Source: Escherichia coli
GTDB taxonomy: Bacteria; Pseudomonadota; Gammaproteobacteria; Enterobacterales; Enterobacteriaceae
Assembly: GCF_003334255.1 (NCBI RefSeq)
Contig: NZ_QOWU01000180.1
Length of the DNA: 978 bases
Direction: 5' to 3' (one strand)
Under the pieces are notes generated by a model. The model saw only the letters and a program-made list of their open reading frames with translations. It did no database searches and was not told the origin of the DNA. Within the stretch, counting starts at the first letter, position 1. Each line of letters opens with the position of its first letter. This document shows, in pieces, positions 1-978 of the stretch. The translations under genes were made by a program, and so were the position numbers.

Positions 1-230
1 TCTGCGTTGCGCAGGCAGGATCTGGCCTCCACGGATTGTCCGGCCCACCATACAGCGGTGGCTGCATTGACGGTTCCACCGTTGCGTTCTGAATCCACCG
101 GGTCGATGAGTTTCTCAAACTGTTTGCCCAGCTTTCCGGTGAACGGGTCGAAAAACACCGCGCCAATCGCGAATATGACTGCGTCCGGTCCGGTACCCAA
201 TGTTTCGGTGTCGATCATGAGATGGTTCAC
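1..230 (-). CDS. Putative DEDD-family (DnaQ-like) 3'-5' exonuclease, N-terminal part; gene continues beyond window position 1
   Basis: Minus-strand frame is open from 230/218 to position 1 (72 codons from the ATG, no stop). Translation from ATG at 218-216: MIDTETLGTGPDAVIFAIGAVFFDPFTGKLGKQFEKLIDPVDSERNGGTVNAATAVWWAGQSVEARSCLRNA. Asp-Thr-Glu at residues 3-5 followed by a hydrophobic stretch matches the Exo I motif of DEDD exonucleases; this is motif recognition only, no search was run. In-frame GTG at 230-228 overlaps the upstream stop (GTGA) and sits 7 nt after GGAGT (plus 238-242); the ATG at 218 is 19 nt from that site, so GTG-230 is the better-supported start. The plus-strand ORF 7..264 on the same DNA has a low-complexity S/P/T/C-rich product and no ribosome-binding site. 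Confidence 0.55.
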   Translation of the reverse strand, partial: MNHLMIDTETLGTGPDAVIFAIGAVFFDPFTGKLGKQFEKLIDPVDSERNGGTVNAATAVWWAGQSVEARSCLRNA

Positions 231-460
231 TGTGTGCACTCCTTCTGTTCGGCGTTGTTCGTGAGCGTTGCAATCAGTCGTTCAATGGATGAGCAGGTTT
301 CCTCCGGGGAGGTGTGCTTCTCTCTCGCTGTGTCAACCAGGTCACGCAGCAATTCGCAGATATGCGCACGCTCGGCTTTTCTTGCGGCCATGCTGATATG
401 TGCATGATGGTTAGCTGGTCTGGCGGCTATTTCTCTGCCGGGTGATTCGGCTGTTCTCAT
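227..460 (-). CDS. Hypothetical small hydrophilic protein, 77 aa, function unknown
   Basis: ATG at 460-458 is preceded by AGGAG (plus 468-472, minus strand) with a 7-nt spacer; TGA stop at 229-227. Product: MRTAESPGREIAARPANHHAHISMAARKAERAHICELLRDLVDTAREKHTSPEETCSSIERLIATLTNNAEQKECTQ, charged and probably helical, with a His-rich N-terminus. The track's 85-aa version (227..484) needs a TTG start at 484 with no ribosome-binding site. I do not recognise the family. Confidence 0.7.
   Translation of the reverse strand: MRTAESPGREIAARPANHHAHISMAARKAERAHICELLRDLVDTAREKHTSPEETCSSIERLIATLTNNAEQKECTQ
238..242 (-). promoter_or_regulatory. Shine-Dalgarno-like GGAGT for the exonuclease-like gene, embedded in the 3' end of the upstream CDS
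   Basis: Minus-strand GAAGGAGT (plus 238-245) lies 7 nt upstream of the in-frame GTG at 230-228. Confidence 0.45.
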
Positions 461-467
461 TTGTTGA

Positions 468-472
468 CTCCT
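468..472 (-). promoter_or_regulatory. Shine-Dalgarno site (AGGAG) for the 77-aa gene
   Basis: Minus-strand AGGAG followed by 7 nt (TCAACAA) and then ATG at 460; an A/U-rich tract (UCUUUUUU) lies immediately upstream. Confidence 0.65.
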
Positions 473-496
473 GAAAAAAGACAAAGGGAACCCGAT

Positions 497-518
497 GGCA
501 TGAATGCCTTAATTAATT
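497..518. repeat. Inverted repeat GGCAT-GA-ATGCC (497-508) directly adjoining the palindrome TTAATTAA (509-516); candidate protein-binding site or RNA hairpin
   Basis: Read directly from the sequence: 5-bp arms GGCAT/ATGCC with a 2-bp spacer, next to the self-complementary TTAATTAA / AATTAATT (509-518), in the AT-rich spacer upstream of the 77-aa gene. Confidence 0.3.
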
Positions 519-565
519 GTTCGTATGTTTTCTGGTGTTATTGCGTTCTTATTTGAAGCTTAAGG

Positions 566-661
566 TTATTCCCAGATCTTCAGGGCTAACCAGATAAGCG
601 CACACACCTGAAATATCAGCCACACACTGGCAATGGTGAGTATTGCTTTTACATTCTTCAT
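566..661 (-). CDS. Putative small hydrophobic (single transmembrane) peptide, 31 aa
   Basis: Minus-strand ATG at 661-659, TAA at 568-566. Product: MKNVKAILTIASVWLIFQVCALIWLALKIWE, with Lys-flanked N-terminus and a roughly 20-residue hydrophobic core. It begins 12 nt after the stop of the 41-aa ORF and in the same frame. No strong Shine-Dalgarno site (upstream is AGCGAAAACGTT), so translation would depend on coupling or reinitiation. Below the ORF-track size cutoff. Confidence 0.35.
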   Translation of the reverse strand: MKNVKAILTIASVWLIFQVCALIWLALKIWE

Positions 662-673
662 AACGTTTTCGCT

Positions 674-799
674 TTATTTACGGCGTTTATCGCCGGTAAA
701 GAATAATTCGATATCCTTCAGTGTGTGGATAATTCGCATAATGCCGATTGCCATAAGTACGGAGATAATCAGAATTAGCCATGAAAGGAATATGATCAT
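674..799 (-). CDS. Putative small membrane protein, 41 aa (N-terminal transmembrane helix plus basic C-terminal tail)
   Basis: Minus-strand ATG at 799-797 overlaps the TGA stop (798-796) of the upstream gene as ATGA; AGGGG (plus 807-811) lies 7 nt upstream; TAA at 676-674. Product: MIIFLSWLILIISVLMAIGIMRIIHTLKDIELFFTGDKRRK. Below the ORF-track size cutoff; the plus-strand ORF 633..815 is antisense to it. Confidence 0.5.
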   Translation of the reverse strand: MIIFLSWLILIISVLMAIGIMRIIHTLKDIELFFTGDKRRK

Positions 800-978
800 G
801 CTGCCACCCCTGTGAAGTAAGGCTCAACAATTTCACCTTCAAACAGTTCTGTCATAATCGACTTTAATTCTTCCAGTGCTTCACGGTCATCGCTGCCCAG
901 CGCGCAGTTGTATAGCCCCATAATTGCGCCGCGCAGTGAGTTACGAAGGCTTTCATCCTTAGTTACGCCCCGGTTTGC
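796..978 (-). CDS. 3' end (C-terminal 60 aa) of a protein-coding gene of unknown function; start lies beyond window position 978
   Basis: Minus-strand frame is open from 978 to the TGA at 798-796 (60 sense codons). Product: ANRGVTKDESLRNSLRGAIMGLYNCALGSDDREALEELKSIMTELFEGEIVEPYFTGVAA, a plausible amphipathic helical sequence. The plus strand over 816-978 is broken by frequent stops. Family not recognised. Confidence 0.6.
   Translation of the reverse strand, partial: ANRGVTKDESLRNSLRGAIMGLYNCALGSDDREALEELKSIMTELFEGEIVEPYFTGVAA
807..811 (-). promoter_or_regulatory. Shine-Dalgarno-like AGGGG for the 41-aa ORF, inside the 3' end of the upstream CDS
   Basis: Minus-strand AGGGG followed by 7 nt (TGGCAGC) and then ATG at 799. 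Confidence 0.45.

Follow-up and report, generated by a model that had tools for sequence, protein, structure and literature searches.

Both 4-base stop/start overlaps in the window (the whole 978-nt stretch of Escherichia coli DNA that was analysed) are real and conserved, yet they represent ordinary gene packing of a P2-like early operon. The genomic context was read from annotated relatives and from the exact source contigs, and the same gene order was observed in phage P88. The whole window was matched exactly in assemblies L006 and L007 (positions 9483-10460), where the prophage carrying it is integrated adjoining ppa and chpSB, and chromosomal segments 92-95% identical to the window were identified in 21 complete E. 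coli genomes. In gene order, the prophage has an integrase and a C-type repressor, followed rightward by Cox, DUF4761, DUF4754 and a 41-aa gene, then by a 77-aa gene, an Rv2179c-like 3'-5' exonuclease, a ParE-like gene, Dam and further small genes, and distally by a derepression protein, the gpA replication endonuclease, SSB and P2-type portal and terminase genes. This arrangement, with a divergent C-type repressor/Cox pair beside the integrase, co-directional genes extending to gpA, and portal, terminase and GPO genes nearby, is that of a P2-like (Peduoviridae, P88-like) early operon. The same 14 phage records contain both the DUF4754 gene and the gene for the small membrane protein; among them is that of Escherichia phage P88 (Xuanwuvirus, Peduoviridae), in which their counterparts gp06 and gp07 overlap by 4 nt. 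Given the prophage gene order and the gp06/gp07 pair of P88, the window was therefore assigned to a P88-like, P2-family E. coli prophage, within the early operon that runs rightward on the Cox side (Pe-type).

The early operon of P88 shares with the present one the integrase, C repressor, Cox, DUF4761, DUF4754, the overlapping membrane peptide, a hairpin-bearing spacer, variable genes, the derepression protein and gpA. However, the cargo following the peptide gene differs, consisting of gp08-gp12 in P88 and of a 31-aa ORF, the 77-aa gene, the Rv2179c-like exonuclease, the ParE-like gene and Dam here. The five co-directional minus-strand ORFs counted in an earlier, sequence-only reading of the window were all recovered (as the 3' end of DUF4754, the 41-aa, 31-aa and 77-aa ORFs, and the 5' end of the exonuclease), and the operon-like architecture that it had proposed corresponds to one co-directional block within this known phage early operon. 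A near-identity search of the phage collection using the window DNA returned no match, and the sole match in a distant DNA search of phages was a short exonuclease stretch in Klebsiella phages. NCBIfam and PADLOC searches with all window ORFs gave noise-level matches only, and no Rfam match to the window was obtained at E values up to 1.

The 3' part of the DUF4754 gene (PF15946, phrog_2549) occupies positions 796-978 on the minus strand; the gene continues beyond the window and encodes 80 aa in full. The part of the product encoded in the window matched phrog_2549 (E 1.9e-16), the full 80-aa product in L006/L007 matched the Pfam family PF15946, and RefSeq relatives are annotated as DUF4754 family proteins. 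A profile search for DUF4754 across the protein library identified only 33 clusters, a PDB sequence search returned helical-repeat designs only, and a literature search for DUF4754 found no paper. The stop codon of the gene (TGA, 798-796) overlaps the start codon of the 41-aa gene (ATG, 799-797), confirming an ATGA overlap at 796-799 on the minus strand. A Shine-Dalgarno (SD)-like sequence, AGGGGUGGC (803-811, minus strand), lies within the end of the DUF4754 gene, 3-4 nt before ATG799, with an anti-SD duplex energy of -6.8 kcal/mol, and GGAG, GGAGG or GGGG is found at this site in relatives. The junction reads GCATGA in all 82 junction-containing loci of the main set (27 distinct variants), in 10/10 further loci, and also in L012, L109-L114, further RefSeq loci and P88 gp06/gp07; the ATGA is invariant over about 100 related loci despite DUF4754 proteins that are only 25-56% identical. 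Contigs were additionally taken for nine divergent DUF4754 clusters, comprising six clear family members and the three most remote relatives. An ATGA-overlapping downstream ORF encoding a membrane protein was present in 6/6 of the clear members and was not found in the three most remote relatives. The ATGA also persists where homology of the downstream membrane ORF can no longer be recognised, as in L109 (49 aa), L112 (77 aa, with two helices) and L012 (34 aa, unannotated).

The 41-aa gene (674-799, minus strand; product MIIFLSWLILIISVLMAIGIMRIIHTLKDIELFFTGDKRRK) encodes a single-pass membrane peptide and is the counterpart of P88 gp07, which is annotated as 'membrane protein'. The peptide has a hydrophobic helix at its N terminus, and its C-terminal tail is basic and would face the cytoplasm. 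The exact protein was found on 104 contigs and its family comprises 144 clusters, every named one being from Escherichia or Shigella; a scan of the genome collection using the peptide profile added one locus only, in E. albertii. Comparison of 27 variants yielded a pN/pS of 0.27 in frame versus 1.25 and 2.87 off frame, indicative of purifying selection on the peptide. The conserved ATGA junction and the in-frame pN/pS together argue that the 41-aa ORF is a real gene and that the DUF4754/peptide pair has conserved its overlap.

The overlaps had also been taken, from the sequence alone, as support for the small ORFs being real genes. The small ORFs do look real, as judged by conservation and pN/pS, but the overlaps themselves contribute little to this conclusion. 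About 54% of TGA stops would be preceded by A or G, and at about 12% of shuffled-window positions at least 40 stop-free codons then follow, giving a chance of ~0.07 per TGA stop for a spurious overlapping 41-aa ORF. In the operon of the source contig, 6/16 same-strand junctions overlap by 4 nt, and in a RefSeq relative (L001) six of the 18 junctions do so, with one further 1-nt and one 10-nt overlap. An overlap by itself is therefore weak evidence for a gene, since one would arise by chance at ~7% of TGA stops and a third of the operon junctions overlap by 4 nt; conservation and pN/pS carry the argument. The comparison with relatives does exceed chance, in the retention of the ATGA junction and in that of the start position at the second junction. 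In prokaryotes, co-directional genes are most often spaced, by a wide margin, by overlaps of -4 and -1 nt (PMC10666635), and in most groups ~15% of the gene pairs are overlapping (PMC6728339).

Downstream of the peptide gene, a 31-aa hydrophobic ORF (566-661, minus strand; product MKNVKAILTIASVWLIFQVCALIWLALKIWE) starts 12 nt after the 41-aa stop codon. This ORF probably represents a genuine gene for a small membrane protein, as suggested by substitution patterns among the few sequences compared. The main alternative, that it is a chance open frame in an intergenic insert, draws on several features: the start has no SD (anti-SD duplex only -1.8 kcal/mol); the ORF has never been annotated or called, its product being absent from the protein collection and from the PGAP annotation of relatives; and it is restricted to one narrow lineage, with a viral contig scan finding it on seven contigs only, all of them already known loci. 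It is also missing from L011, L012 and P88, resembling a ~131-nt single-gene insert relative to L011, and among its carriers a 1-nt indel produces two C-terminal versions and an L8H change affects the hydrophobic core in 9 loci. However, the ORF is intact in 30/30 loci that possess it, and comparison of the window with the most divergent copy (L111) revealed 10 synonymous versus 6 nonsynonymous differences, corresponding to a pN/pS of 0.17 (range 0.17-0.37; Fisher p 1.3e-4) with off-frame values above 1. Twelve consecutive codons (FQVCALIWLALK) display synonymous changes only. A chance frame would have to account for this signature and we regard it as rather unlikely.

Like type I toxin-like peptides, the products of the 41-aa gene and the 31-aa ORF are short, hydrophobic and single-helix. 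However, they are embedded in an operon, without an own promoter, a long 5' UTR or a detectable antisense RNA gene, and neither has an Rfam, NCBIfam or PADLOC match. A promoter scan of both strands near the small ORFs identified none that was convincing. The type I toxin reading was rejected because neither an own promoter nor an antisense RNA was found.

The 77-aa gene (phrog_22206; 227-460, minus strand) extends from ATG460 to a TGA at 229-227, and its SD, AGGAG (468-472, minus strand), is located 7 nt before ATG460 (anti-SD duplex -6.9 kcal/mol). The protein matched phrog_22206 (E 4.3e-46), was found as an exact copy on 118 contigs and belongs to a family of 18 clusters with 69-97% identity, every named one being from E. 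coli; a tblastn search of phages and a PDB sequence search using this protein found nothing. With a pN/pS of 0.6-0.9 and with the length (76-77 aa) and the SD kept, the gene evolves fast around a conserved core (HISMAARKAERAHICELL and IERLIA). Together with the exonuclease gene, it is part of a swappable cargo block.

The 5' part of the exonuclease gene (1-230, minus strand) runs off the window. The full 193-aa product matched the Rv2179c-like family PF16473 (activity predicted). The translation in the window includes the N-terminal DxE motif, in MIDTET; a match to phrog_255 'exonuclease' was obtained (E 2.2e-27), and RefSeq annotates the gene as '3'-5' exonuclease'. At the second junction, the stop codon of the 77-aa gene (TGA, 229-227) and an in-frame GTG (230-228) overlap as GTGA at 227-230 on the minus strand, and the frame opened by this GTG translates as VNHLMIDTET... 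An SD inside the upstream coding sequence, which had been claimed for this junction, was located at 244-239 on the minus strand (AAGGAG), within the end of the 77-aa gene and 8 nt before the GTG. A start at ATG218, which would leave an 8-nt gap between the genes and deprive the GTGA of its role as a start/stop overlap, has been chosen in some annotations (by PGAP in L012 and L103 and by the gene caller in L007). However, ATG218 is not preceded by an SD, its anti-SD duplex energy being -0.5 kcal/mol versus -8.3 kcal/mol for GTG230, and the position of GTG230 is occupied by ATG in two other lineages. The junction adopts three forms in relatives, namely GTGA (as in the window), TAATG (1-nt overlap) and ATGA (-4, in L012), with the start codon at the same position in all variants and with the start position, SD and MNHL extension conserved. 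In a distant exonuclease homolog (L117), which lies behind a different upstream gene with a +8 gap, the protein begins MKHVMID in different codons, and the 4-residue extension (here MKHV) is therefore kept at the protein level. On these grounds the start at ATG218 is very improbable and GTG230 is the better start, with which the second overlap stands. This overlap is less constrained than that of the DUF4754/peptide pair; it is not essential, since its form changes between lineages (-4, -1, -4) and a +8 gap is found in L117.

The two gene pairs are separated by a spacer that includes the leader of the 77-aa gene (461-565, minus strand), in which the 5' part is variable and the 3' ~85 nt are 92-94% conserved, even in relatives without the 31-aa ORF. 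A terminator within this spacer had been put forward in the sequence-only reading as an observation that would refute a single transcript. The scan identified no terminator-like site on the sense strand of 461-565, where no G+C-rich stem-loop is followed by a U-run; the only hairpin of the spacer has a stem of 4-5 bp and is 9 nt from a T-run. No convincing promoter-like site was found in the spacer, and neither a sense terminator nor a promoter was predicted within either overlapping gene pair. A promoter-like TTGACA-16-TAGATT sequence is present just upstream of cox, and no convincing sense-strand terminator was predicted from this site through the window genes. These promoter and terminator scans, in which consensus matches occur at chance frequency, fit but do not prove one polycistronic message.

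The hairpin itself, AGGCA-TTCA-TGCC(A) (496-509, minus strand), is small and conserved, with a 5-bp stem and a tetraloop. It separates the conserved early block from the variable cargo, and in every lineage it precedes the first cargo gene by 40-50 nt. Its variants were anchored using a shared GGG(N)TTCCCTT 3' of the hairpin, MAFFT having misaligned two stem types. A total of 13 distinct variants were identified, with three complementary stem types (AGGCA/TGCCT, TCCGC/GCGGA and TCCGT/ACGGA, representing compensatory stem changes), 10 different tetraloops and ΔG values of -4.3 to -6.9 kcal/mol. On the sense strand no U-run adjoins the hairpin, and a T-rich tail is present on the antisense side; in P88 and L009 the scan marked the antisense strand of the hairpin as terminator-like. 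The hairpin does not speak for a sense terminator and, given the antisense position of the T-rich tail, would act on leftward transcription if it is a terminator at all. It may be an insulator of the early genes from leftward cargo transcripts or an RNA processing or stability element. As in phage morons and at mosaic module boundaries, variable genes have entered here at one fixed intergenic position, which a small hairpin marks, and the ~131-nt insert carrying the 31-aa ORF is similar to such insertions; unlike in morons, no own promoter was detected here, and typical moron terminators are much stronger than this hairpin, the T-rich tail of which is oppositely oriented. Two further candidates in this region were rejected. 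A structured RNA over the whole spacer was discarded because folding energies were no better than those of shuffled sequences on either strand (z +0.4), and no Rfam family matched the spacer. The leader also contains an upstream ORF of 14 codons (ATG 501-499, overlapping ATG460 as ATGA), which was attributed to chance because close relatives differ in the length of a T run (T6/T7) and its frame is not kept.

The preferred reading of expression is that of a P88-like early operon read as one message with termination-reinitiation at both overlaps; we consider this likely, and infer from it a single transcript, coupling and any physical complex of the products. The genes from 978 to 1 on the minus strand would be read as one polycistronic message in the order DUF4754, 41-aa membrane peptide, 31-aa hydrophobic ORF, leader, 77-aa protein and 3'-5' exonuclease. 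A ribosome terminating at the upstream TGA would already be positioned over the downstream start codon and could reinitiate there, aided by the SD within the upstream gene. Synthesis of the peptide would thereby be tied to that of DUF4754, and synthesis of the exonuclease to that of the 77-aa protein. Co-directional pairs with a 4-nt or 1-nt overlap, as found at both ATGA 796-799 and GTGA 227-230, are the classic coupled class, and 13 of 14 tested overlapping pairs were coupled, including 4/5 from E. coli (PMC6728339). The pairs described here resemble those coupled pairs in being co-directional, in their -4 nt overlaps (-1 nt in relatives) and in having an SD inside the upstream gene, and the strict conservation of the DUF4754/peptide pair is as expected for cooperating partners (PMC6728339, PMC10666635). 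They differ in that the first junction pairs a soluble protein of 80 aa with a membrane peptide of 37-49 aa rather than known complex subunits, and coupling is here proposed by analogy. Coupling at both overlaps is plausible on this comparison. The fixed stoichiometry that the sequence-only reading had derived for each pair does not follow, however, as downstream products can exceed upstream products at coupled pairs (PMC6728339); both downstream starts have their own SD (-6.8 and -8.3 kcal/mol), and independent de novo initiation can therefore add to coupling or could even dominate.

Those same SDs would also allow the downstream genes to be translated independently, with the overlaps as by-products of tight packing in a small phage genome. 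A 4-nt overlap is the default spacing in this operon (the 6/16 same-strand junctions described above), and the variable form of the second junction points in the same direction. Packing alone is nevertheless unlikely when set against the DUF4754/peptide ATGA, which is invariant in about 100 loci and persists when either partner diverges beyond recognition, and against the finding that E. coli pairs of the same class are nearly all coupled when tested (PMC6728339). A different objection concerns the message rather than its translation: the block may not be one transcript, with the hairpin/leader region (461-545) serving as an RNA processing site, internal start or terminator and the gene pairs being expressed separately. 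Conservation in the leader (92-94%) exceeds that in the adjoining coding DNA (85-88%), the hairpin combines compensatory stem changes with free loop variation, and it is always found where conserved genes change to variable cargo, all of which would suit such an element. However, the stem is just 4-5 bp and lacks a sense-strand U-run directly after it, the spacer is without a promoter-like site, and with the T-rich tail on the antisense side any termination would be of leftward transcription. Separate transcripts are thus also improbable, and one message with termination-reinitiation at both overlaps is retained.

A partnership between DUF4754 and the peptide is plausible on similar grounds, because genes for subunits of heteromeric complexes show an excess of short overlaps and coupling is distance-limited, being lost by about 20 nt spacing (PMC10666635). 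A more far-reaching proposal is offered only tentatively, namely that in P88-like phages DUF4754 would make up, with the peptide, an obligate, co-translated module of two parts associated with the membrane (acting, for example, in host takeover or superinfection exclusion), joined in this lineage by the 31-aa membrane protein, with the covarying hairpin as a dedicated insulator against leftward cargo transcripts.

This kind of feature is well known and the present instance is undescribed. As such, the overlaps matter little, being the commonest co-directional spacing and lying in genes that are already annotated with these overlaps. RefSeq records disagree on where the exonuclease starts, which can now be amended in favour of the upstream codon, and the protein-coding signature in the 31-aa ORF, which annotation pipelines skip, is a modest useful point. 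For the P88-like phages, DUF4754 and the membrane peptide are a conserved two-gene module that probably acts as a pair, and the description of this invariant pair may be of modest use.

The hydrophobic ORF of 31 amino acids (window 566-661, minus strand) was annotated by no pipeline and had no entry in the protein collection. Its reading frame is unbroken in all 30 of the 30 loci carrying it, and comparison with the divergent copy in locus L111 yielded a pN/pS of 0.17-0.37 (Fisher p = 1.3e-4). The ORF begins 12 nt downstream of the stop codon of the 41-aa membrane peptide gene, at a start without a Shine-Dalgarno (SD) sequence. Judged by sequence comparison with L011, a relative without the ORF, the region looks like an insert of ~131 nt carrying a single gene.

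An ATGA-overlapping membrane ORF was found to persist after DUF4754 genes even where homology to the 41-aa peptide is absent. Such nonhomologous ORFs, each in ATGA overlap with DUF4754, encode 34 residues in the RefSeq relative L012 (1379-1483), 49 residues in the divergent DUF4754 locus L109 (685-834) and a two-helix product of 77 residues in a second such locus, L112 (943-1176); the RefSeq record of L012 leaves its 34-aa ORF unannotated. One database cluster, protein P0167 (109 aa), is a DUF4754 product that reads through the peptide gene in a different frame, and is most simply explained as a frameshifted or miscalled DUF4754 copy.

The 77-aa protein (gene at window 227-460, minus strand), for which neither a family nor a structural match was found, evolves rapidly (pN/pS 0.6-0.9), with a conserved core and variable N- and C-terminal parts. 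In the lineage of the window its gene is always directly followed by that of the exonuclease, whose start (window 216-230; L012 1811-1823; L103, a further RefSeq relative, 800-812; source contig L007 10231-10243) is placed by PGAP or the gene caller at either the downstream ATG or the upstream overlapping codon, depending on the record. The upstream codon is favoured on the basis of the SD sequence and homolog evidence. In the cargo downstream of the window (source contig L006 10822-12025 and 12825-13292; RefSeq relative L001 13341-14545), the genes for a Dam methylase and a ParE-like protein overlap by 4 nt, and the rightward operon also contains a 155-aa gene that points leftward; L006 has a bidirectional terminator-like site at 13472-13494.

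The border between the conserved early genes and the variable cargo is occupied by a conserved hairpin with a 5-bp stem and a tetraloop (window 496-509, minus strand; counterparts at 3090-3103 in phage P88, L108, and 1685-1698 in the related locus L009). Its variants comprise three stem types, all complementary, and ten distinct loops; nothing in Rfam matched, and it is the antisense strand that carries the T-rich tail and on which a scan scored the element as terminator-like. An upstream ORF of 14 codons (MPSGSLCLFSGVNK; window 457-501, minus strand) starts within the hairpin, and its stop codon overlaps ATG460 as ATGA; it was rejected as a gene and is probably due to chance, because close relatives differ in the length of a T run (T6/T7), which puts the ORF out of frame. 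The final ~85 nt of the leader (window 461-545, minus strand) share 92-94% identity with L011 and L012, two relatives in which identity is only 85-88% in the neighbouring coding DNA and the upstream content differs. The leader moves together with the 77-aa/exonuclease cargo block.
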